From Schmidtea polychroa (taxonomy: Eukaryota): a stretch of DNA of 64,000 bases. Below, one piece after another: positions 7,426 through 60,582 of this stretch (position 1 is the first letter of the stretch; every line of letters starts with the position of its first letter). Position numbers and translations under genes: made by a program. Where the stretch lies: contig CM097885.1 of assembly GCA_044892525.1 (NCBI GenBank), positions 29,452,001-29,516,000 of the forward strand, read 5' to 3'. The notes beneath the pieces are model-generated. The model ran no database searches, was not told where the DNA came from, and saw only the letters and a program-made list of their open reading frames with translations.

Positions 7426-7659
7426 ATGAGAAATGAATTGAATGAAGTTAAACATAAGAGAATGAAAAGAAGAGAAGAAGAACCATTAGAATACATCAAA
7501 GAGTTGATGGTAGATAATGAAAAGTATCGACATTTTTATATGAAGGCTGTAGATGTTGCTGATATAAGATTGAAGAAAATGAAACAATTACAGGAAAGAG
7601 TTAAAGAACTTGAATCGATTATTTATAGTCTAAAAAATGACAAAAAATCCAAACCTTGA
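7426..7659 (+). CDS. Small charged coiled-coil protein of the Polinton
   Basis: 77-aa ORF rich in K/E/R with heptad-like periodicity. Its stop codon overlaps tRNA-like unit 3. Confidence 0.5.
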   Translation: MRNELNEVKHKRMKRREEEPLEYIKELMVDNEKYRHFYMKAVDVADIRLKKMKQLQERVKELESIIYSLKNDKKSKP

Positions 7660-7725
7660 TGGCGCAGTGGGCTAGACTGACACAGTGGTTCAAAATGCTA
7701 GCGGTTCAAATCACATCTGAGGTTA
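7653..7725 (+). ncRNA. tRNA-like Pol III unit 3
   Basis: A box TGGCGCAGTGG at 7660, B box GGTTCAAATC at 7703, terminal stem AACCTTGATG/CATCTGAGGTT, T9 terminator. Confidence 0.6.
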
Positions 7726-7871
7726 GTTTTTTTTTCAACATAAAATAATATTAAAAATTTGAAAATAATATTGAAAATAGTGTGGGTATCTTATATTTAT
7801 AAAGTACTTGTATATTTTATTTTATTTTATTTTTTTATAAATTAAAAATTAAAAAAATGACAAAAATTCAA

Positions 7872-7945
7872 ACCTTGATGGCGCAGTGGGAATAGACTGG
7901 CACAGTGGTTCAAATGGATAGTGGTTCAAATCACATCTGAGGTTA
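7872..7945 (+). ncRNA. tRNA-like Pol III unit 4 (duplicate of unit 3)
   Basis: A box at 7879, B box at 7923, same terminal stem, T8 terminator. Confidence 0.6.
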
Positions 7946-8429
7946 GTTTTTTTTCAACATAAAATAATATTAAAAATTTGAAAATAATATTGAAAATAGT
8001 GTGGGTATCTTATATTTATAAAGTACTTGTAAATTTTATTTTATTTATTTTATTTTTTTTTTTTTTTTTATTAATTAATTATTTTTTAAACATAAATATG
8101 AAAAAAAAAATATTGAAACGGGTGATGGTGGCGCACCGGTAATTATCGCCACCTGTCTTTCGAACACCACCGGATCGATCCCGGTAATGTGCACATTTAT
8201 TTCTCAGTTGTTTTCGGACCTCTTTCGAATTCGCTTTCGAATTCATTTGTACTTTCGAGCAGCACACTTAAAACGCCGATGAAATTGTATTCGAGCGAGA
8301 AGCGAATAATAAGGTGTGCTGCTATTATCGAATTGATTCTGATGTATGAGTCTGGCCAGCTTGTATATTGGAAGAGATTTGATAAACGAAAGAGGTTGAA
8401 TATAAAAAAAAATGATCCGGATCAAAAAA

Positions 8430-8492
8430 AAAACTGTTGAGAGGACAGTGAAAAAAAAAAAAAAAAAACCACTGTCCTCTCAGAGCAGTTTT
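8430..8492. repeat. Subterminal hairpin of the Polinton
   Basis: AAAACTGTTGAGAGGACAGTG, then an A-run loop, then CACTGTCCTCTCAGAGCAGTTTT. Confidence 0.85.
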
Positions 8493-8626
8493 ACTATTTC
8501 ATAAAATTTTTTATTTTTAAAACTTTCAAAACCTTAAGGTGATCAGGCGACCTAGATCATTATGAATTAGGTAATCTGATATTCTTATAACATTAAATCC
8601 TTATAACATTAAATCCTTAAGACCAA

Positions 8627-8870
8627 GTAGTGAGGAATCTATGCACCCCGTTACCTTTTCTCGGAATTACTAATCTATAAATACATCTATTCCGAACTTT
8701 TTTACTTTTAAGGGAAGAAATTAAGGGTTAATGGCAATAGGGGACAAAGTTTAAAAGTTAAAAAAAGTGAAGAATATGGGGTAAAAAAGCATATAAATGT
8801 GGAAAATATGGGTCAATAGCGCTGTTTTTTTTGAGGGTGGGGGTGCTGGGGTGCATAGATTCCTCACTAC
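8627..8870. mobile_element. ~245-bp MITE-like element with 23-bp TIRs
   Basis: GTAGTGAGGAATCTATGCACCCC (8627-8649) and its exact reverse complement (8848-8870). No TSD seen. Confidence 0.75.
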
Positions 8871-11125: not shown

Positions 11126-12428
11126 AATATCACCAATATGAACTTTTTATAGCTATAATCATTTTTTTTTCAATGAAAATATTGTTTTAATCGTGTAAGA
11201 TTGGTCTACTTTTTCTTCATATTTGTATTAAATGCTGTATTGAAAATAACATATGACATAACTTATGCTAGTTTAGAGAAGACAATTATTGAAAGATTGT
11301 GAAAGAAAATGATAAGAAATATTCAGAATTTTCAAGCAATATATATATGTATGTATATATACAAATCTTAAAAAATTAATGGTAATCAAATATTATGATA
11401 ATATGGCAAATGAGGTTATTTTGTGTTCATTTTACAATTTTTTTCAATCATTTTTGGGTCAATTTTTCATTTTTTAATCTACAATATACTTTTGTATAAA
11501 ATTTAATTTACTTTAAATATGCAAAAATATATATACATTTAAGGTTAATTTTTTAAAATAAATTTGTAAAATTTAGATGATGAAAGCGATAAACATTTAT
11601 ATATTTTTAATTAAAAATGAATATATATATATATACAATGTTTTAACAATTCTTTTTTATTAATAATTTTTAAAATTTATTATTTGTAATATTAATATTA
11701 AATGAAATATTTTTAGTACAATTTTAATTAATTCAAATAATTAGTTTAAAATGAAAATTTAATAAATATGTTATTGGAATTTTGTTTAAATTTTGTTTAA
11801 TAATACGATAATAAAATCTGTTAAGAGCGGTTGTATGATCTTTCACTAGTATATTATTGGGGCTTTGGAGTGGCAATTTTCAAATTTCTATTTCAAAATT
11901 TTATACAAAATATTACAGAAATGCTTCTTTAGAATTGTTGTAAAAAATAATATGAATGCCTGAACATAAAGAAAAACCATTAATAAATTTCTTTTAAAGC
12001 AAAATTTAATTTTGATTTGTAAATTTATCAGAATAATAAATAAAAAATAATTTTCGAAATCTCTTGAAGTTTAAAGAAAAACCGGAAATTATTATCTAAA
12101 TAATCACACCCGTGTTATATTTTAATTAAAACAATTGCATTGAAAATAATTCGTGCATATTATATTGAGTTTGCATTTATTAGAATAGAAATTTCAAGAG
12201 CATTTAAACAAATTCTATTTTTTATTTTACTGTAAAATGAACTGACAATCGTTTTCATTTGTTGTTTTGCTAGAATTTTGATTAATGAGGATAATTGAAT
12301 TTATGAAATTAATTAATTCAAACTATTCATCCAAATTAGAAAATGTTTCATTATATATAGTCAGTTCAAATTTTAAAATTAATAAAATTTAGCTAAATAT
12401 TTCTATATACTATACAATTCAATGATTT

Positions 12429-12521
<93 letters not shown>

Positions 12522-12701
12522 TATAATAATAATGACGTAATATCACATTCATTAGAGACTGCGTGTTATTTATGTACATTAGTTCCAGAATATGTTCAAT
12601 TGAATGAAAATAATAATATTATTGAGCATAATATTACATGTAAGTTAAAAATTGACATTTCCAATTTTAAAGTGTTATCTAAGAGTTTCTCAAACTATTA
12701 T

Positions 12702-15062
12702 AGTAACATTTTCATTAAAAATCATTAAAACTAAAAAGCTATTTTCAAATATATTTAATATAAAATCTGAATATTTAAACAATATATCAATTTAAATCTC
12801 GTCACTCGCCCCTTCTTTAAGAACTGTGAAAACTCTTTCAGCCATTCAACTCTTCTGCATCTTTTCCCATCTGGATATTCCAGTTCAAATTGATGTTCCA
12901 TTGGAAAACCAAGAATCTTTACAGGACCTTCGAACAAATTACCATGTTTTGATCTCTTATGTGGATCCATTTTTATTAGAACTCTTTGACCCACCTCAAA
13001 ATGCCGATGACTTTTCTTATCTGTATCTCTTGATCTCACTTTATCTGCCGCTACCATAAAATTATTCTATGCTGTCAATAATACTTGTTCTCGGTTAAGA
13101 TCTATGAATGAATTCTTTCCATGTATATTAACCTTTCTTCCCAATAGTATTTCCATTGGCAAAAATCCCGTATAATTCTGTTTTTTTGAGTTTAGAGAAT
13201 ATTCAATTTTTAGCATAATTTTGTCCCAACACCCTCCAGTTTGACCATCACTCAAAAATGTCACGATCATATCACTAACTGTTCGTATTACCCGTTCTGC
13301 TAAACCATTAGACTTATGATCATATGGCGAAGTAAATAACCATTCGATGTTAAAATTGTCAACTAACCTTTTGATTTGACTTCCCTCGAAAACCTTACCT
13401 CCATCCGAAACCATGTAAGCTGGTTTACCGAATTTGTATATCCAATTGTGTAAAAGTACACGATATACAGTCTTTTCATCTTGGTTCTGAGTAGGCGTTA
13501 AATTAACAATCTTGCTGAACTGATCAATTATTATTAATGTTTCCTTCATATGAGCAATATCGATTACAATTTGTTCCATGGAATTCATTATTACCCTAGG
13601 AATTAAATATTCAACTGTTTTACTTGTTAAAACTTTCCTTCTCATGCATATATCACATTTTTATAATATCTCGTATATCGGTTACAATGTGTATCCAAAA
13701 GAAATAATCGTTCATATAATTTGTTGTTTTCTTAACTCCTAAATGACAGAGTTCTTTGTGCATATGCTGTACAACTTATAACGCTATCTTCTGCGGAATT
13801 ATTATCTTCTACTTATCATCATTTACTCTTAATAACATATTGTCTTTAACCAATATCTGATGCAATCTTTTGAAATAAGGTAAATCCCGAATCAAGTGAA
13901 GTATCTCGGGACTCGGGTTTAGCACATATTTCTTTATTATAGACAACAAATTATCTGCTTCCTTATTCTCAATATATAAATGTATGTTTAAATTACTTAA
14001 AGTAATCACGTTTAAAAATCTTATTCAGCTCTTCTCGAGTTTTCCTTCTTCGTGTTCGGTTTGAAATTTTGAGCAATAACTTAACAATATCCTCGATAGT
14101 CCATCAGTGTTGTTATGATATTCACCCTTTCTATATTTTAAATCAAAATCATAACCTACCAACTCACTTAACTATGTTTGGAATTGTGGATCTTTTGGTT
14201 TCGAAGTTGATTTTAAGAACTTTAAAGCCCTATGATCCGTGCATATATCAAACTTTTTTCCATATAAATAATGCCGAAAATATAGGACGTACTCGTATAT
14301 TGCTAATAGTTCTTTTTTAGTTACACAGTATCCTTTTTCGTGAGCACTAAAAAGTCTTGAACCATATGCTATGACTTTTTCACAACCATTTTGAACTTGA
14401 CTTAGAACAGCACCAATTCCACTAAAACACGCATCAGTATCCAAAATAAATTAATCGACCTTATTTGGAAACGCCAAGATTGGTGCACTCGATAATATCT
14501 GTTTAAGTTTTCGGAAACTTTCTTCACACTTGTCATTCCATTTAATATCTTTTCATGTCCCTTTGTAGCCTCATACAACGGTTTGGCTATTTCAGCAAAA
14601 TTTATCAGACTTATGTCTTCGATATTTTGCAAAAAACATTTGAATTTTACATATTTTAAAATAAATCAACTTTTTACCTCTTGATCTGAGACCGGAGTCT
14701 TTTGTGGTTTCTTAAAAGCCATTCATAACTGTTTTGCGTCTCCATGTAATAAAAAATCGAATGCTGCTCCTAAATTGAGCGAATTTATCGTCACAAATTC
14801 TTCAATAGATACAAGTCAGTATTTTGCATTTTCTTTTCCTCCAAAAATCTTCTTTATCACTGCATAAATTGAATCTTGAATATTTTTTGGCAAAGACTCC
14901 TCAATTTCTGCCTTTGCTGTAATCTCGCCAGAGCTGCGATTTCGGCGTGGTCGCCAGTAACCTTTTCATTAAAAATCATTAAAACTAACACGCTATTTTC
15001 AAATATATATTTATTATAAAATCTGAATATTTAAACAATATATCAATTTAAATATCGTCACT
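12702..15062 (-). mobile_element. Internally deleted Ty3/Gypsy LTR retrotransposon with ~105-bp LTRs
   Basis: LTRs at 12702-12806 and 14956-15062 with AGT..ACT ends; 5-bp TSD ATTAT; PBS TGGCGACCACG; PPT AAAGAAGGGG; RNase H (DTDAC..GIGAVL, ELLAI, TDH) and integrase fragments. Confidence 0.92.
14945..14956 (-). promoter_or_regulatory. Primer binding site (probably tRNA-Arg)
   Basis: The minus strand reads TGGCGACCACGC, overlapping the 5' LTR end by one base. Confidence 0.7.
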
Positions 15063-22861: not shown

Positions 22862-23680
22862 GATATTCCTTTCTTAATTGATATTTTCTTTCTTAATTAA
22901 AATTAAAATATTAATTAAAAATCGCCATTCGTACGCTCCTTTCGGTCGACAGTATTCTTGAACTCGATTACATAGATAACGGGAAGTCTCTCTCAAACAA
23001 GATGAGCCAAAATATACGATGGTATTGGCGTATTCTGAAGGATATAAAGATTTCAAAAGAAAGATAGGTAAACATCTGGGTACATTTAATTATAAAATTG
23101 TTTCGAAATCATGCAAAGTACGTAGTATGTTTGTTAGTAAATCTCAAACACCGGTTGGATTGTGTTTGGATTTCGTTTATCAATTCACATGTAATGGGTG
23201 TAATGCCACATACATTGGAGAGACTTCCTGTCATATCTATACTCGAGTGCAAAAACATTGTCGACCGAAGGGAGTATTCATTATTAAGGATCATGATAAA
23301 GTCTACATGAGAGAATTAGGAATGTCGGATTTTAAAATCTTATCAAAACATATTGATAATTGTTTTGATCGTGTGATATGTGAAGCATTATTGATAAGAA
23401 TTTTTAATCCTAAAATCAATGTGCAGAATGCAGTGAATACATGTGTGTTGAATGTTTTAGATTAAGTTTTTGTATGTAATTATGTATATTGAATAATAGT
23501 TATATAAATAATTAAAAAAATAAAGAAAATAATATTTTTTTAAAGAATTTTTAAAAGTGAAAAATAATGTTTCTTGAAAATTATTTTTGAAAATAATTAT
23601 TTAAATAGTGATAGTGATGCTATCGAAATATATATATCGAAAAATATGTACGAATGGCGAATTTTATTAATAAAGTCTTT
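22862..23680 (+). mobile_element. Penelope-like element 3' fragment (GIY-YIG endonuclease) with an inverted partial copy at its 5' end
   Basis: ORF 23019-23465 has VYQFTCNGCNATYIGET..RV.KH...R.I.EALLI...PKIN.Q. Bases 22862-22993 are the reverse complement of parts of the element. Confidence 0.88.
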
Positions 23681-31845: not shown

Positions 31846-31986
31846 AATTAATATTTCCAAAAAATTTAAAACTAATATAAAATATATATTTTAAAAATTT
31901 TATTAAATGTTATATTTTATTTATAAAAATCGCCATTCGTACATCTTTTTTGCACTATATATTTCGATAGCATCACTATCATCATC

Positions 31987-32027
<41 letters not shown>

Positions 32028-32430
32028 ATAATATATAAACAAATTATAAAATATATAAATTTTAAATTATAAATAAAAATTTTAAATAATCATTCTTTTT
32101 AAAAACAATTTTAAATAATCAATTATATTTAAACTTTTAAAATTATTAAAAATATTTTTTCAATTATTTAACATAACTATTATTAATATACATCAACATA
32201 CAAAAACTTAATTAAAAACATTCAACACATAAGTATTCACTGCATTCTGCACATTGATTTTAGGATTAAAAGTTCTTAATATCACACGCTCAAAACAATT
32301 ATCAAAATATTTTGATAAGATTTTAAGATCAGACATTCCTAATTCTCTCATACAGACTTTATTGTGATCCTTAATATTAGACACTCCCTTTGGTCGACAG
32401 TGTTCTTGAACTCGAGTACAGATAGATGAC
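31846..32430 (-). mobile_element. Second Penelope-like fragment
   Basis: Reverse-complement similarity to 23230-23670, including the GIY-YIG C-terminal half and the GTACGAATGGCG tail. Confidence 0.85.
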
Positions 32431-41035: not shown

Positions 41036-43226
41036 AATATAAGTTTTAATTTTAATAAATAATTATACTTAATAAACATTTTTACGTTTTAAAACTTCTT
41101 CTATTAAACTTTAATTATAAGGTGTAATTTTATTTCCTTTTAAAATTACTCTTAAAATATTCTACATCAGAAATTAAACTTGAAAAGGTAGAATTCACGT
41201 TTAAGTTAAAACGAAACATTGCTAATAAACATTTAAATTGTACTTATCAGATTACTTAAATTTTTATATAAATATTTAAATTAATAAATAAAAGTAAGTT
41301 TAAAATATAAAAATAAATTAAAATCTATTAAATATTAAAATAAATTAAACCAGCATTGAAATCAGCATCAAAATAAAAATAAAACCCTCGAAGCTATCTG
41401 TTTGAATATTACGATAAAAGCGCAGTTTTAGTTAATTTTAGTTAAAATTGGTAATTTTATTAATTGATTTTATGGATATTGAAAATGAATTTGATGTTGT
41501 TGCGACTAACAACACTTATAAAATTTCTGCCACCAAGATTACACTTGTAAAAGTCCCGCCCCTTTTTACAAGATCCAACGATAATAAAGGAAAATGATTT
41601 AACGAATTACCATTCTGGAAAAATAATTAATATGTAAAAAGTTATAAAAGAATAAGGTGTTCCGGTGCAAGGAGTGTGAATAAATTTAAAAATGGAGAAG
41701 TAAATGTCAAAATGTTCAATGCACTTTGTTACAACAAACAGAATAGACCTTAGAACTATTCAAACATTTGGTTTATCAAACAAAGGGACCAGTAAGAAGA
41801 GGATTGTTAAGTTCTGTAATAGATCCATGTTTTATTTTCTATTCTACGACTTTTCGACACAACATGTATCAATATAGTAAACAAAAGACAGTAAATAAAA
41901 ATAAATTAAAAAAACAATATTGTAAAAATAATATTTTAAATTTACCTAAATTCGTAGATAATTTTCTATTTCATTTATATGCCAATAAAGTGTTTGTTTC
42001 AACTTGAGTGTACCTAAAATATGTAACCAAATCAATAAACAAAATTATTTTGATAAATGTGGTGAGAATAATACGCTACAATGTAGGATAACAAATATTA
42101 AACGAAACTATAGGGATCTTAAATTAGAATAAATTCGTATATTTATGTTTTAAGAATCCCTAACTTACCGATGCAACATAACAATACAACTGTAACAATT
42201 ACTTCATTTAACAATGGATCTTTCCTTGCCAGTGTCATATATCTCCAGTGACAGTTTTTATGAGAAGTTTTGCCACATTTCTCGCTTCGACTTGTTTATT
42301 CCCAAATTACAAATTTTATATATGAAATGACTTTATTTATTTTACAATATCAACAAATAACAATTCATTATCAGTTTTAGTTTTTATCATTGAATAAAGG
42401 ATGTTTATTTAATTTCCTTTATTTATTACTCCAAAACCAAACCATATCGAATATTATTGTTGTGCCGCTGTTTTTAAATGTATAAATAATTTGACATATT
42501 ACAAATTATGAGTAAAATAAAAGGATATCATGATACTGATAAATATTTGTTTATTTAATATTTGTTAATTAAATAAAACCATCACAAAATTTAACAATGT
42601 TTTTACAAAAACATTAGTAAGTTATGTCCCCTCTAAGACAGAACCCCTCTCACCTAATAAGGAAAAAATATTAAGCTAAAAATATTTTGCTTAATAATTT
42701 TATTTAGGTAATAGTAGGATGTGGGCTCCCCCGGCCAGGGGCCCTCTGGATCACATACCCCTCCCCCACCCCCCCCGGGGAAAATTTTTTTTTTTTAAAT
42801 AAAAGGTCAAGGTCAACGTCAAATTTTTAATAAAAGGCCAAGGTCATTTTTTTTTGTTTTATTATTTGATCCAGCGGGCTCACACTTTTTTTCATCCCAA
42901 AAATTAATGTTCCCGCCAACAGAATTTATTGACCGATACATCATCTTAAAGCCCAATGCAAGAAATTTAAGATGTGTTATAGGTATTTTATATATCTTTA
43001 ATAGTTTTAATGTTATTATCCATTGATGACCACCATCTTTTCAAAGTTAAATTATTATTATTTTTCAAAATATTTTTCTTCATCCCAAAGATTAATGTTC
43101 CCATTACCCGAATTTATTAAACGATAGCTTATTTTGAAGCTTAGTGTAAGATCTATCGATTGATATATAAATATTATTATTATCATTATTATTGTCAAAA
43201 TTATTAACGTTTTTCCGAGACCATTT

Positions 43227-43512
43227 TCAAGGTCATTTGACTATTTTATTATTTTTTCAAAATATTATTTTTCAAGGTCATTTATTTTTTCAGAGTCATT
43301 TATTATTTTCAAGGTCATTTATTTTTTCAGGGTCATTTATTATTTTCAAGGTCATTTATTATTTTCAAGGTCATTTATTTATTCAAGGGCATTTATTTTT
43401 TTCAAGGTCATTTTTTCAAGGTCATTTTTTCAAGGTCATTTATTATTTTCAAGGTCATTTATTTTTTGAAGGTCATTTATTATTTTCAAGGTCATTTATT
43501 TTTTCAAGGTCA
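43227..43512 (+). repeat. TCAAGGTCA tandem array
   Basis: About 15 copies (roughly 11 exact by my count), mostly at 14-19 bp spacing. Confidence 0.92.
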
Positions 43513-43710
43513 TATTATTATTTTAAAAAAAATTATTATTATTTTCTAAATTTTTATTATTTTTAAGTTAAGTTAAAGTTTTATTATTATTATTATTATT
43601 ATTATTGTTAATGAAAAATCTAAAATATGGTTTACACACACAACCCATCAACCATTATTATTATTATCAATATTAAAAACCTAAAATATTTTTTACACAA
43701 CTCAATAAAC

Positions 43711-43751
<41 letters not shown>

Positions 43752-43754
43752 TCA

Positions 43755-46700
43755 AAAACCTAAAATAATTTTTACACACTAAGTTATGGGGTAGAGAATT
43801 ATTATAAGTTTGCAGTATTCTGTGTTTGCCTTTACAGGAAGTTGTCAATAAGGAGCGATAATTTTATACACACATTCTATATACACATACCTTGTTTAAC
43901 ATGGGTGTATATACTCCTAGTCTATCCGACAAAATATTCTGTCCCCCTATGGGTATTGCTCATATGGGTAATGGTCACAAGGGTACTACTCACACTCAAC
44001 ATGTCGCAAGGGTATATTAATTAAGTTTAGTAAATAAAACCTATCACACATACTATTTTTAATAATATTTAAACGATAAAAAATCAAGACAAGAGAGTAC
44101 AAGGCAAAGTTTATGCATTTAGTATTGCCAGGTCTAATGAGCAGTGACCAAATATCTGTGCTTGAAAGACACGGTGGATATTTGTTCGCGTCCACAAGGG
44201 TCGTCTGTGCCTCCCCCAAGTGGGGTCAGAAGAACTTGGGCATTATAGCTTTCCGTACGGAACATTACGCCTAGCATGGGTAGTCAACTACCAGAACATT
44301 CGAAACGTATAATTACAAAATACATGCGTCATTGGCACTATAACCAAATTAATTAATGTTTTCACAAACAAAAATATATATTTACAGAGGCCTCCCACTA
44401 GTTGGATTACAACCGCCCACCACGACGATCAGCTTGTAAATATATATTAATTAAGGGATTAAGAGGACCCACCCAACCCTATTATATTTAATTTACAAAA
44501 GGTTTCTCGCTCTTCTGCTGGTAATCTATCTCAAAATTATCATCTCCATCGGGCCATTTGGAATACATCTTGCAAATTGGACGTATTTCTTAGTTTCTGA
44601 TGCGGTGTCAACTATCATTGCTAAAATTTATATTGATTTAAAAGCAATTAATTTACATTATCTAGCATTTTATCGTCACAGGCTTGATAAATTAGGCAAC
44701 TGTTATTTGTGGTATACTTTTTCAATGTCATTTCTTATCAATTCCCACCATAAAACACAGATACCTAAATATAATATATATATTTTAAAGAATTAATTCA
44801 TGTCTTACATTAATAATAATATTCTTCAGGTATGACGAGTACTTTACTTAATTGCTAAAACATCGGTTTTCCCATTTTTCCTAACATTCGTTGAAAGAAA
44901 GTTTACATAATTTAAATCTGATAAGTAAACATTCATGTTGAAGGACACCCACAATCAGCTAATTCATTTAAAAAATTCAGAAAATAAGTCATTTAGTGTT
45001 GCACCATTTTGTCTGGTTCATCTTCTTCATAATCATATAATTCATTTTCTTCATTACTAAGTAAAATAATTAAAATATTGTAGTAAATTCTTTATTTACT
45101 TACTTTATGGATATTAAAACGAAAGAAATAAAGTTATATGAAAAGTTTATTTAATTAATTTAAATTTAGTTATTTAAAAATATTTAAACAATTTAGTTAT
45201 TTAAGCATATTTAAACATTATTATATAGTATAATTTTATATAATATTATAATATTATAATTTTATGTACACTTATATATCCTTCATTTAATTTTTTAAAT
45301 TCAAATATTTATAATGAAGATTCTTTGAATTAAAAATAATTCCAGTGAACTTATATCCTTTTAGAGGTTTATTAGGTCGTGATGAATGTTATTGCACAGT
45401 AATTTAGATTTATATTTTAGAACAAGTTTTTATTAATTAATTATTCACGGTTTTATTAAGTCGTTTAGGGTTAATGATCAATTAGGTGTTTATTTACTTG
45501 GTTTTGACAATGAAATATCTGAAATCTTTAGAATTAATTGAGAATGATATCAAAGGTTATTGCTTTAAATTATTTACCTTTATTTAACATGTTATAGACG
45601 GATATTCATTGTGGGGATATCGGTGACAAAACTTGAGAAATATTGACTTAAAAGTTGGAAATCGACAACTAAAGAAAATTTAACTTTATTGAAGGAAATT
45701 TATGATTTTAATTAGAAATTAAATAGGTTGAATGTCAGTTAATCTATTGAAGGAATATTTTTATCGGGTGGATAAATGATATTTTGCTAAATTACCTTTG
45801 CTAAATATTATTTTAAATGACTAAAAATAACAAAATTAACCAATATTCATAAATTTATCGCACAAAATATCCATGTTTTGGTTACTCAAACATCTTAAAT
45901 TTCTCGCAAAGATATATTACGTCTAATGATCATCTAATTAAATAAGAAAATAATTGTTACTTTATAATATATATTTCTAACTAATAAGCCCCTTAATTGG
46001 ATAAATGATAACCATATTTCTATAATGACTCCTTTATTTATTTTTGCCTCAAACAAATTTACTCCAAATGATAAAGAATTTAAAATTATCAATGAATAAA
46101 GACCATGTTTTTCTCATATTATTAACTATTGTAACGAACATTAGATGAATAAATTAATTTTTGCTTTAAATGACACCAAAGTTAACCAATAAATTAGTCG
46201 CTCGACATAAGTGTAAAGTTACATTTAAAATATTCACGAATTTCTGATCATCTCACTAAATTACCTAAGAATTTCTCACTGATTAATATTGCGACGTTGA
46301 ATGTGACCAGTACCCTTGCTAGCAATACCCATAGGGGGACAGAATATTTTGTCAGATAAACTCGGAGTATATGGTCTTTATTGATATATCAAAATACTGT
46401 TATTTATAAATTAACTAAAACATACTCAAAAATACCATATTATTTTACTGAATGATACCGTAAATGTTTTTAATATATCTATTTCTAAAACAAATCAACA
46501 GTTCAAACCAACAACATGTATGGATGACCACCCATTGTTAATTTATTTCCAGTGTCACATCTTTCAAGAATACCGTGAGTGTTTTAACAAAGCTGAGCTA
46601 AAAGAAACTTCCCAGATAACAACTCACCTGAATGTTTTGAACAAAAATGAGCAAAATTGAGAACAGGCTGATAACTGAACAAACAATTAGATGGCGATTT

Positions 46701-48535
46701 ACTTCTGGCAACAACCCTAAATATATAACATGAAAATTAAGATTTTAATTATTGAATTCGTTGTTTTCTGCTTGGAAATACTAACAGAATATTTTTTTAA
46801 TTCAAAGAATCTTCATTATAAATATTTGAATTTAAAAAATTAAATGAAGGATATATAAGTGTACATAAAATTATAATATTATATAAAATTATACTGTATT
46901 TATTAATAAATTTAGAATACATAAAATTATAATATTATAATATTATATAAAGTTATACTATATAATAATGTTTAAATATGCTTAAATAACTAAATTGTTT
47001 AAATATTTTTAAATAACTAAATTTAAATTAATTAAATAAACTTTTCATATAACTTTATTTCTTTCGTTTTAGTATCCATAAAGTAAGTAAATAAAGAATT
47101 TACTACAATATTTTAATTATTTTACTTAGTAATGAAGAAAATGAATTATATGATTATGAAGAAGATGAACCAGACAAATGGTGAAACACCAAAAGACTCA
47201 TGTTCTGGATTTAGAGATTTCTTATTAAAACATGAATTATGAAGAAGATGAAAGAGACAAAATGGTGCAACACTAAATGACTTATTTTCTGAATTTTTTA
47301 AATGAATTAGCTAATTGTGGGTGTCCTTCAACATGAATTATCAGATTTAAATTATGTAAACTTTCTTTCAACGAATGTCAAGCAAAATGGAAAAACCGAT
47401 GTTTTAGCAATTAAGTAAAGTACTCGTCATACCTGAAGAATATTATTATTAATGTAAGACATGAATTAATTCTTTAAAATATATATATTATATTTAGGTA
47501 TCTGTGTTTTATGGTGGGAATTGATAAGAAATGACATTGAAAAAGTATACCACAAATAACAGTTGCCTAATTTATCAAGCCTGTGACGATAAAATGCTAG
47601 ATAATGTAAATTAATTGCTTTTAAATCAATATAAATTTTAGCAATGATAGTTGACACCGCATCAGAAACTAAGAAATACGTCCAATTTGCAAGATGTATT
47701 CCAAATGGCCCGATGGAGATGATAATTTTGAGATAGATTACCAGCAGAAGAGCGAGAAACCTTTTGTAAATTAAATATAATAGGGTTGGGTGGGTCCTCT
47801 TAATCCCTTAATTAATATATATTTACAAGCTGATCGTCGTGGTGGGCGGTTGTAATCCAACTAGTGGGAGGCCTCTGTAAATATATATTTTTGTTTGTGA
47901 AAACATTAATTAATTTGGTTATAGTGCCAATGACGCATGTATTTTGTAATTATACGTTTCGAATGTTCTGGTAGTTGACTACCCATGCTAGGCGTAATGT
48001 TCCGTACGGAAAGCTATAATGCCCAGGTTCTTCTGACCCCACTTGGGGGAGGCACAGACGACCCTTGTGGACGCGAACAAATATCCACCGTGTCTTTCAA
48101 GCACAGATATTTGGTCACTGCTCATTAGACCTGGCAATACTAAATGCATAAACTTTGCCTTGTACTCTCTTGTCTTGATTTTTTATCGTTTAAATATTAT
48201 TAAAAATAGTATGTGTGATAGGTTTTATTTACTAACCTTAATTAATATACCCTTGCGACATGTTGAGTGTGAGTAGTACCCTTGTGACCATTACCCATAT
48301 GAGCAATACCCATAGGGGGACAGAATATTTTGTCGGATAGACTCTGACTATATACACCCATGTTAAACAAGGTATGTGTATATAGAATGTGTGTATAAAA
48401 TTATCGCTCCTTATTGACAACTTCCTGTATAGGCAAACACAGAATACTGTAAACATATAATACATAAACATATAATATATAAACATGTAATTCTCTACCC
48501 CATAACTGAGTGTGTAAAAATTATTTTGGGTTTTT
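43755..48535. repeat. Near-identical inverted arms (~43755-45338 and ~46791-48535) around a ~1.45-kb spacer
   Basis: Mirror ORFs 44605-44796(+)/47466-47657(-) are identical. ORFs 43986-44219(-)/48043-48276(+) differ by one residue. Confidence 0.95.
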
Positions 48536-48542
48536 GACTAAT

Positions 48543-48614
<72 letters not shown>

Positions 48615-48755
48615 TATAATAATAATAATAATAATAATAATTGTTAATGGGTTGTGTGTGTGTAAAAATATTTTAGGTTTTTCACTAATATTGATAATAA
48701 TAATTGTTAATGGGTTGTGTGTGTGTAAGAATATTTTAGGTTTTCACTTATATTG

Positions 48756-48800
<45 letters not shown>

Positions 48801-49214
48801 TTAATAATAATAACATCTTTCGCGTGGGTGTTATTATTTTAAAAGAAAATATTGAAAATTCAAAAAAAAAATAATATTTATGCAAAGCATGTGCAAAAAT
48901 TATAATCTTTTATAAATAAGTCAACTTTAGCGTCAAAATAAGTTTTTGAAATATATTTAAATTTTAAAAATACCGCAGCGTAATATATTTTTGTCATACC
49001 CTTTCATTGATTTAAGTTGGTCAGAATTTAATAATAATTTTAATAATAATAATAAATAATAATAATAATACTTTGAAATTGTATTTGAAAATAATTTACG
49101 ACCTGTTGAATGTGAGTAGTACCTATGTGATCAGTACCTTTGTGAGTAGTACCTTTATGACCATTACTCTTAGGGGGACAGAATATATTGTCGGATAGAT
49201 TAAGACTATATATG

Positions 49215-49281
<67 letters not shown>

Positions 49282-49366
49282 TAATAATAATAATAATAAT
49301 GTCATTGTGAACAGTACCTTTGTGACCATTACCCATAGGAGGACAATTTGTCGGATTGATTAGGAG

Positions 49367-49441
<75 letters not shown>

Positions 49442-49684
49442 GAATAATAATAATAATAATAATTATAATAATAATGATAATAATATTGATTAAAACTTTG
49501 AAAATAACCTCTTTCGCGCGGTCGTTAATATCTTTCCCAATAATAATGATGATAATAATATTTATATATCAGTAGATAGATCTTGCACTGGGCTTTAAAA
49601 TGAACTATCGATCGATGAATGATGGGAACGATAACTTTTGGGCAAACCGCTAGATCACTAATAATATTTGACTAATAATAATTT

Positions 49685-50256
49685 ATGAGTCATCGTATGA
49701 GCCATCGAATGAGTCGTCGTTCTAAGAATATGTGGCATCGATTACGTAATAATTCTAAAAATATGAGGCATCGTTCTAAAAATATGATGAGTCATTGTCT
49801 TTGTTCTAAAAATGTGATGAGTCATCGTATGATAGAAATCTATATCTCATTAGAAAGGTCTTGCACAGAGCTTTAAAATAAGCTATCGATCAATATAATC
49901 TGTTGGCGGGAACATTAATTTTTGGGATGAAAAAAAGTGTGAGCCCGCTGGGTCAATTAATAATATTTTGAAAAATAATAATAATTTAACTTTGAAAAGA
50001 TGGTGGTCATCAATTGTTAATAACTATACCAATAATAATGATGATAATAATATTTATAGATCAGTAGATAGATCTTGCACTAACGAAAACCATGTCACCG
50101 CTAGATCACTAATAATATTTTGAATAATATGTGGCATCCTTCTAAAAATATGAGGCATCGATTACACAATAGTTCTAAAAATATGTGGCATCGTTCTAAA
50201 AATATGAGGCATCGATTACATAATAGTTCTAAAAATATGTGGCATCGTTCTAAAAA
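49685..50256 (+). repeat. TCTAAAAATATG(A/T)GGCATCG minisatellite blocks
   Basis: Repeated ~21/33-bp units at 49685-49830 and 50125-50256. Confidence 0.85.
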
Positions 50257-53191
50257 AATTTTTTCCCCGGGGGGGGCAGGGGGTATAAGTGGCCGGGCGG
50301 GCTCACATCCTACTACTTTAGGTCAACTCAAATTTAATGATTTTCATGAAATCTTTCCAAGTATATATGTGGGTTAAGTCAAAAGTTATGTAGTCGGTCA
50401 TAGATACACATCCACATAAAAGTAGAGCCCCCTACTTTTATATATATATAGATTTAATTAATTAATAAGTAAGTCACAGAAACGCATTCTATATAGTTTT
50501 TTTAATAAATAAGTAGGTCACAAACACTTATTCTATATAATTTTATTATTAAATAAGGACGTTACACATACAAATTCTATATTTGTTTCTGAAAATTAGC
50601 TTGTTTTATGTTATATTTGACTTTTAAATAATAAAAATTATAATTAATGTCATAAAGATATCTGTATTTTATAGTTTTTATTAATTTTTGACATTGTAAC
50701 AATATGTCTCTCATATTTATTGAAAGTTTTCTTTCTTTTTATTCGAAATTAAAGATTTCAATACAATGAATTTAGCACTTTCCACTTATGTTTATGATTG
50801 TTTAAACTTTAAACGATAACAAAATAATAATATTTCTTTTATAACTATGATAACGATGTTACCTCAAATAGCATTGAATTCTAACAAAGATAGAGATTTG
50901 ACTAAATTTACTAATTAAAGTATTTCTTTCAAACATATCAATGATTGTTTTCATAAATGACGATGTATTTCTCAAAAAGAGGAGTAAATTACTTATAAAA
51001 TGTAAAATTGCTAAATATTATGTATTTACTGACCACATATTTACTGATTAATATATATTTATTGAGATGCTTAGATACACTAAAAAATGACAAACTTAAA
51101 CGATATTCATAATTTCGTCAGTTCGATCAAAATATACATGTTTTACTTAATAATTCGGTAAAAGTTACATTCATATTTAAAAATGTTACCCTAATTATCC
51201 TTGAATTTCTGACAAAGATATATTACCGAAATGACCATCTATTTCTCACTAAATTTCCTGTATAACCGTGTATTTTTAACTAATGTATATGCCCTAATTT
51301 GCAAAATTATATCGAAATCATTGAGTCTTTACTAACATATAGATATGAATTCGTTAAATATTACCTCAAATAGTCATTTAACAAAGATATCAAAATTTTA
51401 CTACATGTGATAAAACTTTTCTACCTAAATTTAATAAATAATCAATGAAATGTTGTTATAAAATGACCATGTATTTCTCACAAAGTTGTATAAACCTGTA
51501 TGGTTTTGTTAAATGTTTTCTCAAACAACAATATATTTCTAACAAATATACATAAAATACCTGAAATTGTTAATAATTGTTAATAAAATAGTCATACATT
51601 TTTCACAAAGATTTATGATTGACCTATTAACTTTGTTCGATACTACACCAATTAGTCATGTATTAATCTTAAATCGACAATGTTTTTGTTACATAAATCA
51701 CCCCAAATATGTTTCTAGTTAATTGATTGAAATAATTGGTACCGTAGAACTATGTATTTCTATCAATTATATACAAATTTGTTATGAATTGTAGAATAAA
51801 ATAACCATATTTTAACTAAATTAAATAGTACTTTTCAAATCATGGATTTCTAACCAAATTGTCTATGAATTGATAGATATTTTCTGAAAATGATCAAATT
51901 TTCTAAATTACTTTCGGAATTGCTATATACATAAATAACCATATAATTTTGACTACATAGTCTAAGAATTTGCTATATGGTATCCAAATAATCATGTTTT
52001 TCTTAAATTGTATATGACATTGTTAAATACTTTAAAATAATAAAAATAATAATAATAAAACAATAATAAAATTAAAAATAATAAAATAATATTATGTGAA
52101 TGCTTGATAAACAAATATAATTGCATAATTAATAAATTTGCCTACAAGAACATAACTAACAAAGACATTGAAATGTCATACTTGCATTTCGTCAAAGAAA
52201 ATTATGGCGGTAATATCAGATGGGAATCAATCGACAGAAGAGTGGCGTCATTTATTCAATGTTATTTTATGAATTGTTATGCACTGTAATTTTTTTTATA
52301 GTTTTGTATTTATTTTCTTGAACATGTTTTTTATTTAAATTTTAAAAAATGTATTTAATTTTCATGTTTTTTATGAATTTTTATTGAATGTTTTAGCATT
52401 GCCTAAACGGGATGATAAGAGATCTTGGGTAAGTAAACTCTAGTTTTGCATGTGGGGATTATTTAGGGGTTGATTTCATTGATATTGACGATAATAATAT
52501 TCAGCCTGGAGCAGATTCTGATATCTTCAATCATCATTTTGAAAAATTATTTAATTCTGTGATTTATGAACATTATAATAAAGTGTAATATATATGAAAC
52601 CAATGCAAAATTAAAATTATTTTAAATCATTATTTTAATTTTTATATTATTTTGTGTTTATTATTTTAAATTGTTTATTGTTAATTATTTTTATTAGAGT
52701 AATTTTATTACAGTGCAATTAAAATTAATATTAAAAAGAATAATAATAATAATAATAATAATAATAGAATAATAGAATAATAATAGTAATTGTTAGACTG
52801 TGTGGATCGAGTATTAATTGTATCCATTTGTTATTAATTAAAGACTCGAAATTATTTTATGCCAACAATATCCTGGGTAAGAAAACATCATTCTACAATC
52901 ATTCTATTAATTTAAATTATATAATTATATTATAATTATACTTACATTTAAATTATTAATATATTATTTAAAATTATTATTTACATATCGTGAAATTCTA
53001 AATTAATTAATAAATTATTTAATTAATTAAGTTAAGCTTTATTTAAATTATTACATACATTTTACCATTTGGCATTCATATTTCATAACTCCTTTTATGT
53101 CTTTTATTGGTTATTACTCCTGTGCCTTCATATAGATCGCAATCTTTATTACGCAAAACTTTTTTAATTAACACAATATTACCATTTTTAT

Positions 53192-53283
<92 letters not shown>

Positions 53284-56184
53284 TTATTAAACTTACTTTG
53301 ATTAAGACTATTTATTGAAACTATATAGTGTATATGAGAAACTTATTTATTAATAACTATATATAGACTGTCCTGGAGGGGACACAAGGTTTTATCAGGA
53401 TGTGTGTCTGTGACCTACTACATAATTTTTAAGTTTACCTACATAAAATCCTAGAAATATTTCATGAAAATCATTGAAATTAAGTTGACTTACATAAAAG
53501 CATAAAAAAAATAAAATTATTAAAATTTCGTTATAAAACCTTGAAAATCGTAAAGATAAAAATATTAAGCAGATTTTTTGAGCCTAATATTTTTTTACTT
53601 AGCAGTCGGATTCTGTCCTGGAATGAACATATCCTACTACTCAACCATAATATTAAATTTTTATTTGTATCGTTTTACGTATTACTATTCCATGTATAAA
53701 TTTTAAGTAACATTTTATGTAAATTAAATATGACTTTCAAAATAAATAATTGTTTGAATCGCGTGCAAAATTAAAATGAAAATATCTATGACTACACTCT
53801 TAGAATATTTTCTTTCAAAAGTAAAATTATCAAAAAAATAAAACAAGAATTTAAACAATTTATTATTTTTCTTAGAATAAATGAAAAACAAAATATATAA
53901 AGAATAAATTTGTAAACATCAATTAGAATTGAGACAAACACTTTCACATTTTAGTAATATAAATATACTATATTTATTTCAAGTATTTATTTGTTTGAAT
54001 CATTTGAAAATAAATGGTTGTCTATTTTAAAGAAACGTAATTGAATTCCTTATGTACCTTTTAATATATTTCTTCAGTGTCTTATCACGACAAAAGAAGT
54101 AAAAATATATCTAGTTTGTTTTCAATAAAATTACATTTGCAATAATTTCAGTTTATGGGAGTGTCAATTATATTTATTTTATTCAAAATAATATAAATAA
54201 TTATAAAGCAATTTCGTGCGAAATATATACCTCACAATATATATAAAGCCTTTTATTTATTTTTGTCCCAAGAATCATGTCTTCATTAATGACATTAGAT
54301 GAACCAATACAAGTAATTAGTGACAATGAACTGCGTAACTGTTATGAACAATATATTTGTGGTGGTCAAACTTATTTGTTAAAATAATGAAAATACTGAA
54401 TTGTTTTATATATTAATAATATTTACAGATGAGCTTTAAGTAATTCACTTCCATGTGTAGAATTTAGTTGGGTACATAATAATCTTGATAATACTTTGAT
54501 AGATTATATGAATTCAATCATTAGATTATGAATATACTTTAGAAGTAAATCTTGAAATAGATTTGAGAATTCATGAGATATATGACGATTACCTCTGTTG
54601 TGGCATAAAAAATGAAACCGATAGGATCTACAATTGAAATACTATTATGAAAATAACTTCATGAAAGTTTTTATATAATACATGGCCGGTAATAAATAGT
54701 AAACCATCTGGTACAGTCGCTTCTGATTCGCTGAATAAAAGCATGACTCATACAAATGATAACTAATTCGATGTGTCATGATTCGGCATACATTTTAGCA
54801 TAATATATTGATGGGTGCGATGCGTTATCAGTCAAACATTTAGTATTTTCTGCTAAAAAAATTCGTTAATGCTAGTAAATAGATGTGTGGACTCCAGTTC
54901 AACAAGAATCTTAGACTCTCACAAATTTTTTTGGCACCCCGCCATACAAAATATTTTCTAATTTTGTTTTAATACGTGATTACATAATATTTTAAATTTT
55001 GTTTTGTTCATCGATTACTCAATATCAAAAGATTTTTAAATTACTGATTACATCATCAATTTTCATTTTTTATAAGAATTTCAAAGACTTAACTGCTTGA
55101 AATTAAATTCTCCATTTATTGAGACTAGCTTAATCAAAATTTAGAAAGTTAATTTTCAGTACACCATTTTTGAAGTTACACATCATTTTAAACAACTTGA
55201 GATATTTTCACTTTAACCAACTTTCCCCATCTTTATATTTAATTTTTTCAAAGGCATTCTGAAAACGGGAATTTCGATTGTTAATGAATATATTTTCATT
55301 GTAATGTAGATTCTTATTGCTTTTGTCCAAAACTTTATTTACTGCTTCTTTTTTTGTTATATGAGCAATGAAACTTTAATATTGCGACTTGATCAATTTG
55401 ACTCATTTTGAGAATTTATATGGAATTTCATCTACCAAGTAATATATCTTATGGTTATGATACATTTGTATTGGTTTCAAATCTTTTTTGATTTGAACCT
55501 GTTTTGTCTTAGTTATTTTCTTAATTGAACTTGTTTCTTTAAATAAATTAGAAAATGATTTCTCCCCAACAACATTCTTCTTGAATTGCATTTTAAAAAG
55601 TAATGACTATATGTAATTTCATCTCTCTTTTAAACTTGTGTATAACCAATCAAATTAATGTATAACAACATGCGTTTGTGAATCAATGACTTTTGTGAGA
55701 CCTTTCTATGTGAGTCATATATGATTTGAAAATTATTTAATCAAGTATTAAATTTACTAGTATGATATCACAAATATTCATAAGCATATCCATTGGCGTG
55801 TAACTCACCCGCCTAATCCTCCTTTCAGGATATTCGAGATTAGTTTCCATAGTTGTTATCCAATAATAATAGCGTCACCGATCAGTTCGTCGAATGTAGT
55901 TTCGTCAAAGTCCATTTTGCAATCATAATAGCAATTAATTACAAATAATTTATACCATTTTATATGTATTAATTTAATGGAGAAACTGAAGTTAAAAAGA
56001 GCAACCAGGTAAAAGTTCGAGAACCAAAAATTATTAAATTATTAAATTATTAAATGGAGTTTTTTTAACATTTATCATGTCTCCATCAATGCTAAAGACA
56101 CTGAGTTAAGTAAAACTAAGATGGTAATCTGTCCCAAGGCTAAACAGCTGATTGAAACTTACTTTAATTTAAAAATATTTTAGT

Positions 56185-58546
56185 GGTCGATGGATATGTC
56201 CCATACAAACCCCCTCCCCACTAGAAAATATCTAGGTCGACTCAGAATTTTATGTAGGTCACGAAAATATATGGTGTGTATACACAAAAAATAAATTAAA
56301 ATTTTATATAAATTATTTGATTTTTTATTGAACAAAAAAAAGTAACAATAATAATTTAAAAAATAAAAATATGAATAAAAAATATAAATTACACGTCAAA
56401 ACAAAATAGCTTAAATGTACAAAAAGTTTTTTTTATAATTCATTGCCTTTTAATCGTTTAATCGTTTACTTTGGATAGTTTTTATTATTTCAATAGAATT
56501 TCATTTCCAACTAACTCATTCTTGATTACTTTCATTATTTATTATATTTTTCTTGTTCTTTCTTTTATTTTTCTTTCGTTTTGTTTTGTTTCTTGATATT
56601 TTTAATTGCCCATCGCTTGTTTTTCTTTTTTCTACCATTAATTGCAACACCAGCAAGGGGATTTTCAATTTGAAATATATCATAATCCAATATGGCAATA
56701 ATTTTTGAATTGAAAAGTATTAATTCAACACCATTAGAAGGTGATGAATGCTAGTTTATATTTGTGGGGTTTTTTGATAATAGGGAGGCCACAATATAAA
56801 TATCTGCTACATAAAGTAGACTTCTGAGTGAAATTAATTTCAACATTACAAATAATATTCTATGACGGACACGAATTTTAATACCGAATTTATATATTAC
56901 GATATTTGTTTACTTTAGGCAAGATTTACCTACCAATGGATTTAGCATGACTAATATTTTTCAACCTTGTATAATTTCTTATTAATTATATTTTTGAATG
57001 GAATTTATTTGGAATTCAGACCCTTCATTCAAGCTTTTGTGGACCCAAATTGTCTTATAGAATTCGCATTTGAAATTTTAATTTAATAACAAATTCCACC
57101 AATAAAATCTTTGACAAAATCCGAAAATTATCGACTCTCACTTTGTCTCATATTCTCATATTTTTTTCATCAAATTTTAATATTTTATCTTTTACAGAAA
57201 TATTGTAATAAAAACAAACTTAAAATGGCACATATATTGTTTTTCTATAAAAAAGACCACTTCTTTGAAATATTATAGACATATTATGCCATTGTCGTCT
57301 GCTTCTATTATTGGCCAATGAAAAAAAAACGTTAAAAAAATAAAATAAAAACTTTTTGTACATTTAAGCTATTTTGTTTTGACGTGTATTTTATATTTTT
57401 TATTCATATTTTTTTGTTCAATGAAAAATCACATAATTTATATAATTTTAATTTATTATTGAGTTTTTGTTACAATAATTGATAAAGTCTGGCACAATAA
57501 ATGCTTCTTGTTCGAGGAAATTTCGGAATATTGAAAAAAATTTATATTCCTTTATTTTCTGTTATCAAATATTTATTTTTGTTAGTTTTGAATTTACTGA
57601 TTTTCATTTTATTTTAATTTAATTTGTAAGAAATATATTTTTTAATCCAAGTTTAATTTTTCAACAAGGAACAAAAACTCCATAATTTTTTATTTATTAC
57701 CATTAACGATAAAATTTATTGGTCAAATAATATTTTTTGTTAACTGACAAAATTCAATCCGAAACATAAGCTTGCGTAAAATAATACTGAACCCAAAAAT
57801 AAACCAGCAAAATTCAAATCTTACTTTGTCGTGAACAGTCGTAAATATTTATTTAAGTCACACTCCGATACTTTCTGAAATTAATAGTCTGAAATTCTCT
57901 AGTTTTGCGCAATTGAAATTCAAGCGTTGTTGAATTTTTTCAATTTGAATATTTTTAATAAATGTACATCAACATGTTTTGTGGTGAAATCTTGATTAAA
58001 AATAATAGTCATAAAAATTTATGAAATTTCAGTTGAGAAATTTAATTTGGGGACTTTTTAAAATTCGTGGAAATTTATCTTGCGGATTCTTTTAGTTGGG
58101 AAGATTTTTTACTTGTAAATATCTTTTATTTTTTCTATACGGATGATTTTCTATAATAAAGTTATATTTTTAAAATTTTTCCTAGTATTTTTTACATATA
58201 TAAAATTTCGTAATTTTTGAAAAAAGTTTGAGTTGGAAAATTTTAGGAAAATTAATTTAGAAAACTTTTTGATTTATGAAATTTATTTTCAGGATTTTTA
58301 ATTTTGGTAATTTTTGAGTTTGGAGGATTCTTCCTGTAAATAACTTTGTATAATTTTTTTTAAATTTTCCAAATATTTTTCTAAAGCTTTTGCTCATTGT
58401 CTCACTATGTGTTATGAATTTAAGAATATGAATTTAAGCATTTTTAGCATATGTACACTATATATTTTGGTGACCTAAATTAAATTCTGAATCGATTTAG
58501 ATATTTTCCATGTTGAGGTTGTGTGGGTGGGACACATTCATCTACT
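56185..58546. mobile_element. Third, degenerate Polinton-type TIR element (2.36 kb)
   Basis: 56185-56283 is inverted at 58449-58546 (end CATCTACT), and 56286-56433 is inverted at 57348-57457. Flanks TTTAGT/TTTAGC match 5/6. Confidence 0.7.
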
Positions 58547-60582
58547 TTTAGCGATCACTATTATTTATTTCAAGTGACTAAGTCAGTTTTTTAAGAGATT
58601 AATAAATAAACTTCCATTGATATTGTAGCAGGTGATACAAACATTATTTGAAGAAAATATTGGAAGTTAGAAAACCTATTATCTGAAATGATAAAAACTG
58701 ATCGTTTGAAGGTCAGAGTTACACAAAAGATTAGATTCTGTTAAGGAACGACATCATGTGATATGATGAGTGGGATTTTTATAGGCCTAAATGTTATTAG
58801 CTTATTAGGTGAATCAAAAAGCCCTAAAGACTATGAAATATCTTTAAAAGATGATAAACTACTATACTACTATACTAATTATATGGTTTTATGGAAACAA
58901 AAATAGGTTGAAGTAATAAAGATGATGCAGGGGTTTAGGTGTGAAAAAGTAAAAGTTACTCATAAGAATAATGGCGTCTTTTGAAAATTGGCTTAGCTTT
59001 ATAAGGCGCCCTAAATATATTTTTTCCAGATTTTTTATTTACAAAAAGGATAAACATACGCAATTTAAAAACAAAAATTTTATTAACAAAAATAAAATAT
59101 TTATTCATTTAAAATAAATATCTAAATAAATAATAAAAATATGAAAAGAATGTAAAAGATGTTGATAATTTAGATTTTTTTCAATAAAATTATAATTATT
59201 CGTAATTTTCTAATTTATTATCTTTTTTAGTATTATTATTTTGTATTTAAATAATAGTTCTTATTGATTATTTTATTTTTATTTGTATTTTCTGTGTTTT
59301 TGTTGGTAAACCTTTTATATGTGTGTATTATTATTATTTGCAAAAATGTAATGTCATTCGGTGGATTGGTGATTCTTCCAGAAAATACTGAGACCAAAAA
59401 TACTACAAAATATCAACTCCCATTTGACCATAAAACTCCCTACAAAAAAGCCAATTTACCCATTCAACATTTCATTTTGATTTATTACTAAAAAGAGCCA
59501 TGTTCAGATATTGATACCTGCCTAACTTTTGTTGAAGGTGGAAGGAAGTCGTTCAGAAATTGACCAGTGGGGTACTGAGCTTCTTTAACTACCTACCCCA
59601 GTGGCTTGAATTATTTTAAATATATTAATTAATTATAATTTCAATTTCTTTATTTTCATTAGTTTTCAGACAAAAGATTTTATTTAATTATTTTAATTTA
59701 TTAACCGTAAAATTGAAAATAAATCTAAATAAATATAATATTTCACAGATAATAAACATTATCATGGTGATTATGTAAATATAAATAATAATTAATTAAA
59801 TATCATTTAGATAAATTTGAATGAACATTCATTAGTGATATTCAAAGTTGAATAATCTAAAAAATTTAAATAAATAAGTAATAAATATCAAACTTTATTA
59901 TTTGTTGTTTAACTGTAAAAATGTATATTATATGTTTTACTGATATTTCATTTTATCACACAATTTAAAATTTGTTAGTAGCATTAAAATATATTTTTTA
60001 TGACATTCGTTAAACTTTATTTTGTTTTATCTAACAAATCAAAAAGTCACTTTGTTGATGATGGCAAAGGAACAATAATTTACTATGATCTTATACATTT
60101 ATTTAAACACAATAGGAGCATTTATTTATAATATGTTGCCAAATTATAAGATTTTGCTAATGAATAATTAATTTGCAAAAAATATATTTCTTCGGTTTTG
60201 ATGTATTTTATCAAAGTTCAAGATTTCGTTAATTTAATATAGATAATAATGAAAGTGAAGGAAAATGAAAAAAAGAAACGAATATATTAATTAATTTTTA
60301 CAATGCTCAATATTCAAAATAATGATTTATGAATTATTATATGAACAAATAATTTTGATATAATAATTATAAAAATTAATTAAATTAAAATATTTAATTA
60401 AAATATTTAAAAATTTAATTAAAATATTAAAATATTTAAAATAAAATATGAAATGTAAAGTGATGATTTCTTGGTAGCAGCATTTATTATTTAAAACAAT
60501 AAAATGATAATTTAAGCTGCAAATAATGTATTTAATGAATAAGGCTTAAATTATCATTTTATTGTTTTAAAATATGAAATAC

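Follow-up and report, generated by a model that had tools for sequence, protein, structure and literature searches.

A gene-less 7.6-kb inverted-repeat insertion with Polinton-type ends in the Schmidtea polychroa genome: a probable non-autonomous satellite of an abundant family

Introduction

How does a 7.6-kb palindromic insertion without a recognisable gene come to lie inside another repeat, and whose enzymes brought it there? The question is raised by positions 42704–50323 of a 64,000-nucleotide stretch of Schmidtea polychroa contig CM097885.1 (assembly GCA_044892525.1, 29,452,001 to 29,516,000, forward strand). This whole stretch is called the window, and all positions are counted from its first letter. 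A preliminary description of the locus had proposed a foldback element with Polinton ends and a 6-bp target site duplication (TSD), mobilised in trans by a Polinton integrase such as the one in the window. Our analysis indicates that the 7.6-kb element is probably a non-autonomous, gene-less, Polinton-type satellite of a very abundant family that was moved in trans. Beyond the preliminary description, the element is nested in an older element with the same AGTAGTAGGAT tip, its end sequence is present at very high abundance, and each of its arms carries a head of the signal recognition particle (SRP) RNA.

Polintons are also named Mavericks. The accessible text of PMC8097293 defines Mavericks by 5′-(AGT)2//(ACT)2-3′ ends and a 6-bp TSD, with (AG)3//(CT)3 tips also in the definition, which agrees with the AG..CT ends and 6-bp TSDs that the preliminary description gives for Polintons. 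The jump-back step of protein-primed replication makes use of the end repeats (PMC8097293). Low copy numbers are usual for Polintons, and nobody has directly watched them replicate in animals (PMC8097293, PMC4028283).

Results

The element occupies nt 42710–50317 (7,608 bp) and is bounded by TTAGGT at 42704–42709 and 50318–50323. The duplication is exact (6/6) at both junctions, as first described, and the chance of such a duplicate at a fixed place is 2.3e-4. TTAGGT is not self-complementary and thus breaks the inverted symmetry, as expected of a TSD. The AGTAGT-type ends reported earlier are perfect on the right, where ACTACT is (ACT)2, and carry one mismatch on the left, where the tip reads AATAGT. 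The two tips align with 86% identity over 64 columns, and further blocks at 82–88%, so that the element ends in terminal inverted repeats (TIRs). Removal of the element and one TSD copy makes the flanks collinear with the opposite TIR of an older outer element (264/353 columns). Because the flanks rejoin in this manner, 42710–50317 is an insertion.

The third AGTAGTAGGAT tip, at 53641, closes this outer element of 3.4 kb, which starts near 42613, and the 7.6-kb element was inserted about 90 bp inside its left end. As a single case (n = 1) this gives no basis for a target preference. The outer TIRs are 79–80% alike, the outer element has no ATG-initiated open reading frame (ORF) above 45 residues, and its own TSD has decayed to 4/6 at best. 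In the public run X5 nt 42614 is G, so that the outer left end becomes AGTAGT; the outer left tip attracts no extra read depth at a likeness of at least 80%. The outer element, gene-less and with the AGTAGTAGGAT tip, is a candidate second non-autonomous Polinton-type family.

Another gene-less TIR element with TAGTG ends and a TIR of about 107 bp at 78% lies at 56180–58560. Its right end bears a motif resembling the tip of the 7.6-kb element (p 0.009–0.014, uncorrected), and its TIR interior recalls that of the outer element.

The multi-kb inverted arms of the preliminary description are real and near-identical, with the correction that they measure only about 1.8 and 2.0 kb and that the blocks outside them reach merely 82–88%. 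The arm core, 47392–48232 against 44030–44870, is 99.9% identical, with one mismatch in 841 columns. Compared over 43755–45345 (1,584 columns), the arms show 22 mismatches and four indels of 27, 7, 83 and 56 nt; as 5 mismatches lie beyond the arm end, 17 substitutions remain within the arms. Since these substitutions and indels, the subterminal blocks and the side-specific minisatellites all differ, a plain fold-back artefact is unlikely. The tip motif GGGCTCACA recurs in inverted orientation 150–350 bp inward of each end. A unit of about 200 bp in the left subterminal region is tandemly repeated in other copies of the family, in which joints and loose contig ends at 43060–43074 return to about 42860–42890. 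An 87-nt motif occurs five times, at 48268–48354 (+), 43908–43994 (−), 46287–46373, 49126–49212 and approximately 49305–49372. The features are collected in Table 1.

Table 1. Coordinates of the 7.6-kb element, its target and the Polinton genes of the window
Feature	Position	Strand	Basis
Outer element, left end (insertion target); tip reads ATTAGT	42613–42703	+	
Left TSD copy, TTAGGT	42704–42709	+	direct reading
Left tip, AATAGTAGGATGTG, continued by a C-rich tract and an A/T run	42710–42793	+	aligned to right tip
Left subterminal region; inverted copy of tip motif GGGCTCACA and ~200-bp unit	42859–43209	+	sequence comparison, contig joints
19-bp minisatellite, core TCAAGGTCA, left side only	43249–43524	+	
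Left inverted arm, ~1.8 kb	43533–45336	+	
Mirror SRP Alu head (44390–44433) in 14-bp hairpin, outward-pointing	44373–44448	−	identity to right-arm copy
Spacer, unique, 1,457 bp; one diverged 87-nt motif copy (46287–46373)	45337–46793		
Right inverted arm, ~2.0 kb	46794–48813	−	
SRP/7SL Alu 5′ head within 14-bp hairpin, outward-pointing	47814–47889	+	Rfam RF00017
Internal 87-nt motif with AGTAGT and GGGGGACAGAAT	48268–48354	+	
Right subterminal region, rearranged blocks 82–88% to left counterpart	49523–50083	−	
54-bp minisatellite, right side only	50126–50256	+	
Right tip, minus strand AGTAGTAGGATGTG	50252–50317	−	direct reading
Right TSD copy, TTAGGT	50318–50323	+	direct reading
Outer element, remainder; left TIR continues 50324–50511, right TIR 53309–53641	50324–53641		
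ATPase (Polinton)	3339–4136		
PLA2-rve integrase (Polinton)	4148–5560	−	
DJR capsid (Polinton)	5581–6876	−	

That no Polinton gene can be recognised in the element was borne out. A Pfam search of 30 six-frame read-through pieces from the inner and outer elements returned two rows, both far below the cut-off, and tblastn of 12 window proteins and 120 integrase homologues against the element gave nothing at E ≤ 0.05, while those queries recovered their own genes in the window. Neither pPolB nor an rve integrase was found (Pfam in all six frames; tblastn with the integrases, pPolB by Pfam only), nor were ATPase, protease, major or minor capsid genes (Pfam, tblastn), and the length of 7,608 bp falls short of the 13–25 kb expected of a Polinton. 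A 113-residue ORF present in both arms has no Pfam match. One arm frame was compared with 1.84 billion representative proteins; its sole match, the bacterial PKD-repeat protein P0121 at 26% identity, was rejected as spurious, because five identical repeats add up to its score. The second arm frame yielded 0/550 candidates; for the third frame and for the spacer the search consisted of Pfam and tblastn only.

The arms contain a piece of SRP RNA. The 44-nt head at 47829–47872 aligns with positions 1–44 of metazoan SRP RNA in RF00017; its score of 29.5 bits (E 1.4e-4) does not reach the gathering score of 70. It lies between the halves of a perfect 14-bp inverted repeat (47814–47827 and 47876–47889), with T5 following, and the left- and right-arm copies are identical over 101 nt. 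Folding of the 65-nt head alone gives z +0.5, and of the head with its flanking hairpin z −2.55. The head shares helices 3 and 4 and the UGUAA turn with the SRP Alu 5′ domain and the 7SL-derived RNAs Alu, B1 and BC200. Unlike the 7SL-derived RNAs, it has no A-tail or TSD of its own, lies within a 14-bp inverted repeat and is a fixed part of a DNA element. With the flanking repeat inverted rather than direct and the A-tail absent, it does not have the form of a 7SL-derived short interspersed element. In a circularly permuted Alu domain, the 14-bp stem could take the part of helix 5. Further Rfam matches (mir-297, PhrS, snR83, snoTBR7) were dismissed as low-complexity or chance. A GC-rich stretch at 47965–48140 was considered as a structured RNA and rejected at folding z of only −1.3 and −1.8; the best value among 126 sliding windows was −2.25.

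Four public runs (X1, X2, X5 and X13) out of 24 listed, none of them an RNA run, were compared with nt 41600–43245. Flank depth, taken from single long contigs, was 259 in X1, 50 in X2 and 40 in X5. Relative to the flank, the summed contig depth, which is not a copy number, reached 266×, 343× and 60× in the tip bin of X1, X2 and X5, respectively, 3,517×, 2,856× and 939× in the next bin, and a peak of 19,644×, 22,019× and 14,100× at 42865–42919, where contig joints reveal the tandem unit of about 200 bp. In X13, from organism B, 17 contigs matched, one of which covers 42720–42757 with AGTGGTAGG just upstream. The left end sequence belongs to an abundant family, seen in two studies. Among the matches listed (40 of 78 rows), at least 97% of the X1 depth reads another letter at 9 of 15 left-end positions, and the right end carries the majority letter at 7/7 of those positions that align. 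The left end of the 7.6-kb copy is thus decayed or a rare variant. Such a left end beside a near-identical arm core suggests that a fold-back or conversion took place late.

Beyond these runs, a 19-nt tip pattern found 3 loci in JGI metagenomes (GC 47–50%) without further likeness to the window, and a 14-nt tip found 120 stretches in IMG/VR, with a best extension among 123 loci of 7 of the next 16 bases; both results are attributed to chance.

The window has a Polinton of its own. Its gene block at 1–6900 consists of open ORFs that include an A32-type ATPase, an rve integrase (DDE core) fused to a PLA2-like domain, and a double-jelly-roll (DJR) capsid. Two further ORFs of the block, without Pfam match, are likely the penton and the protease, judging from gene order and motifs. 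The integrase has 964 homologues at E ≤ 1e-20, the best at 88%. In IMG/VR a single-sequence query found no relatives of it, and an alignment query found one 10.7-kb contig without termini. A 248-bp unit at 8626–8873, with 23-bp inverted AGTAGT-type tips and no TSD, adjoins a 5′-truncated hAT ORF, and is a candidate for either the end of the Polinton or a mini-element.

Near the Polinton end, four outward-pointing tRNA-like units of the RNA polymerase III type (A/B boxes, T-runs) occupy 6925–7960; the one at 7167–7239 passes Rfam tRNA at 32.4 bits, and the last two form a 219-bp tandem duplication. Close to the same end is a strong hairpin with an A-run loop (8428–8494). A hAT transposase split over two ORFs follows at 8874–11127, with its right TIR near 11127; the left TIR is absent from the window, and so the Polinton may lie inside the hAT element. 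Farther along are a Gypsy-like remnant with an rve integrase (12700–15060; direct repeats of about 107 bp at 12702 and 14956) and two inverted copies, about 80% alike, of a GIY-YIG (Penelope-like) fragment (22980–23674 and 31916–32424).

Discussion

As a trans-mobilised satellite, the 7.6-kb element would retain only cis signals, namely the (AGT)2 tips and the repeated subterminal motifs. In Polintons these tips are both the start site of protein-primed replication and the end that the integrase joins. The genome holds Polintons with an open integrase, an ATPase and a DJR capsid, and an autonomous Polinton of this kind is likely to have supplied the rve integrase, with its 6-bp staggered cut. 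Copying of the family, which would start at the (AGT)2 tips, is probably the work of the protein-primed polymerase of such a Polinton. Strand-displacement copying would free single strands that could fold back, much like copy-back defective genomes; the near-identical inner palindrome may then have arisen by a template switch or by later inter-arm conversion. The 7.6-kb copy itself is probably a resting fossil, because at many left-end positions it bears a letter uncommon in the family.

The element has the (AGT)2//(ACT)2 tips, the TIRs and the 6-bp TSD of Polintons/Mavericks (polintoviruses). It differs from them in its lack of genes for polymerase, integrase, ATPase, protease and capsid, in its long internal palindrome, in an end sequence that is far more abundant, and in its length of 7.6 kb against 12.7–24.6 kb for intact vertebrate Polintons/Mavericks. 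A zebrafish family, Polinton-1N1_DR, appears in the accessible text of PMC9341505 by name only, the N standing for non-autonomous in the naming used in PMC10045372. In Pieris, polB-less Polintons with TIRs of about 2 kb are described as still mobile in the accessible part of bioRxiv 2025.02.07.637071. Both depend on functions in trans, a probable likeness to the present element that for Polinton-1N1_DR is drawn from its name; the Pieris elements retain most genes, unlike the 7.6-kb element. Our literature search on non-autonomous and planarian Polintons and on captured 7SL pieces, which did not cover Repbase, subscription journals and supplements and saw other sources in part, found no gene-less foldback Polinton and no captured piece of SRP RNA. 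Copy-back and snap-back defective viral genomes are described as helper-dependent, with ends kept and a palindromic or panhandle shape (PMC13506859, accessible text). Those genomes arise anew during infection, whereas the present element is integrated and inherited with a TSD. Non-autonomous DNA transposons of the foldback type or the miniature inverted-repeat type (MITEs) are gene-less, with long inverted arms and subterminal tandem repeats, and occur in high copy and nested in their kin; the 7.6-kb element shares each of these properties.

Several observations call for caution or weigh against a Polinton-type satellite, in addition to the reservation on summed depth given above. A scan of the window for an exact non-palindromic 6-mer with an inverted match of at least 15/20 returned 28 pairs, among which the element's own pair (16/20) merely ties for top place with 4 AT-rich pairs, and the left tip is imperfect. 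The 6-mer alone is weak evidence; the case for insertion is carried by the rejoined target and by the match of the tips, which is longer and GC-rich. A second copy with a different TSD was not seen among the loose contig ends listed. Vertebrate Mavericks are mostly low-copy (PMC8097293), and the anole is reported to have no non-autonomous Mavericks in the accessible text of PMC3014272. Apart from simple repeats, neither DNA nor protein comparison revealed homology between the element and the Polinton of the window. Compared with the single candidate end at 8626–8873, its tips are no better than shuffles beyond AGTAGT (p 0.08–0.13); only the outer element's tip reaches p 0.008, in one of 22 comparisons. 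Of the original proposal, the insertion itself stands, together with its lack of genes, its membership of a repeated family and its Polinton tip motif and TSD length; the part that names the window's own Polinton as the helper is not supported by these tip matches.

Under an origin in place, a longer Polinton-type insertion would have lost its middle and afterwards gained the inner inverted duplication, and the 7.6-kb form would never have been mobile. We consider this unlikely, although it has the best standing among the alternatives. The outer blocks at 82–88% against the arm core at 99.9% indicate that the inner palindrome is younger than the divergence of the two ends, and the minority letters of the left end, with the majority letters on the right, fit such a relic. 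Yet it still requires a Polinton-type integration, and coding remnants were not found. Moreover, of the words sampled across the whole stretch 0.69 occur in X1, a value that speaks for the existence of the content and not for its arrangement.

A cut-and-paste DDE foldback with a Polinton look acquired by chance is somewhat less probable still. It could be MuDR-like, with TAGTAGG tips and a decayed 10-bp TSD, or hAT-like, with an 8-bp TSD; MuDR elements make TSDs of 9–10 bp, and hAT elements of 8 bp. Shifted boundaries do yield such duplications, and these count among the points against a Polinton-type insertion: a shift of +2 gives identical tips with an 8/10 match over 10 bp, the best MuDR-type result (9-mers match at ≤4/9), and a shift of +1 gives 7/8 over 8 bp. 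Long arms with subterminal minisatellites are typical of foldback elements, high copy number fits MITE-like families, and the window holds a hAT transposase. Every shifted reading, however, needs two changes rather than one, both at the junction, and fits worse, and the tip motif with a 6-bp TSD is not known from MuDR, hAT or P foldbacks. AG precedes TAGT at independent ends, not only at 50317 but also at the outer tip at 53641 with its unrelated flank, in the X5 variant at 42614 and in the organism B contig of X13 with AGTGGTAGG, and the window's hAT end is unlike the element tips. Another superfamily with a 6-bp TSD, IS3EU/GingerRoot, has TA..TA (or TG..CA) ends (PMC10045372, accessible text). 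It was checked as a source of the termini and does not fit, the 6-mers at the TA..TA boundary matching at only 2/6.

That the inner palindrome within a real TIR element is an artefact of assembly, amplification or polishing, as one mismatch in 841 core columns and arm–spacer junctions read from the assembly alone might suggest, is very improbable given the 17 substitutions and four indels (7–83 nt) between the arms, the unique 1.46-kb spacer and a symmetry that stops at the tips.

Returning to the Polinton-type satellite moved in trans, a bolder extension of it can be put forward, one that we regard as doubtful. The element might be an inherited satellite of a Polinton virus of animals, copied as fold-back DNA by the protein-primed polymerase of the helper, inserted by the helper integrase and possibly packaged. 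Both arms might make a circularly permuted SRP Alu-domain RNA that binds SRP9/14 and tunes host translation or stress responses, and the satellite may prefer the ends of its kin as targets. Adenovirus VA RNAs tune host translation or stress responses by other means.

Protein-based annotation misses gene-less elements of this kind. If the element is a Polinton-type satellite, an abundant family of ends only would mark out the minimal cis signals of Polintons, and many dated insertions would become available for testing the protein-primed fold-back model. Virus-like Polintons would then have parasites of their own. The retained head of SRP RNA suggests a possible small-RNA function that can be tested.

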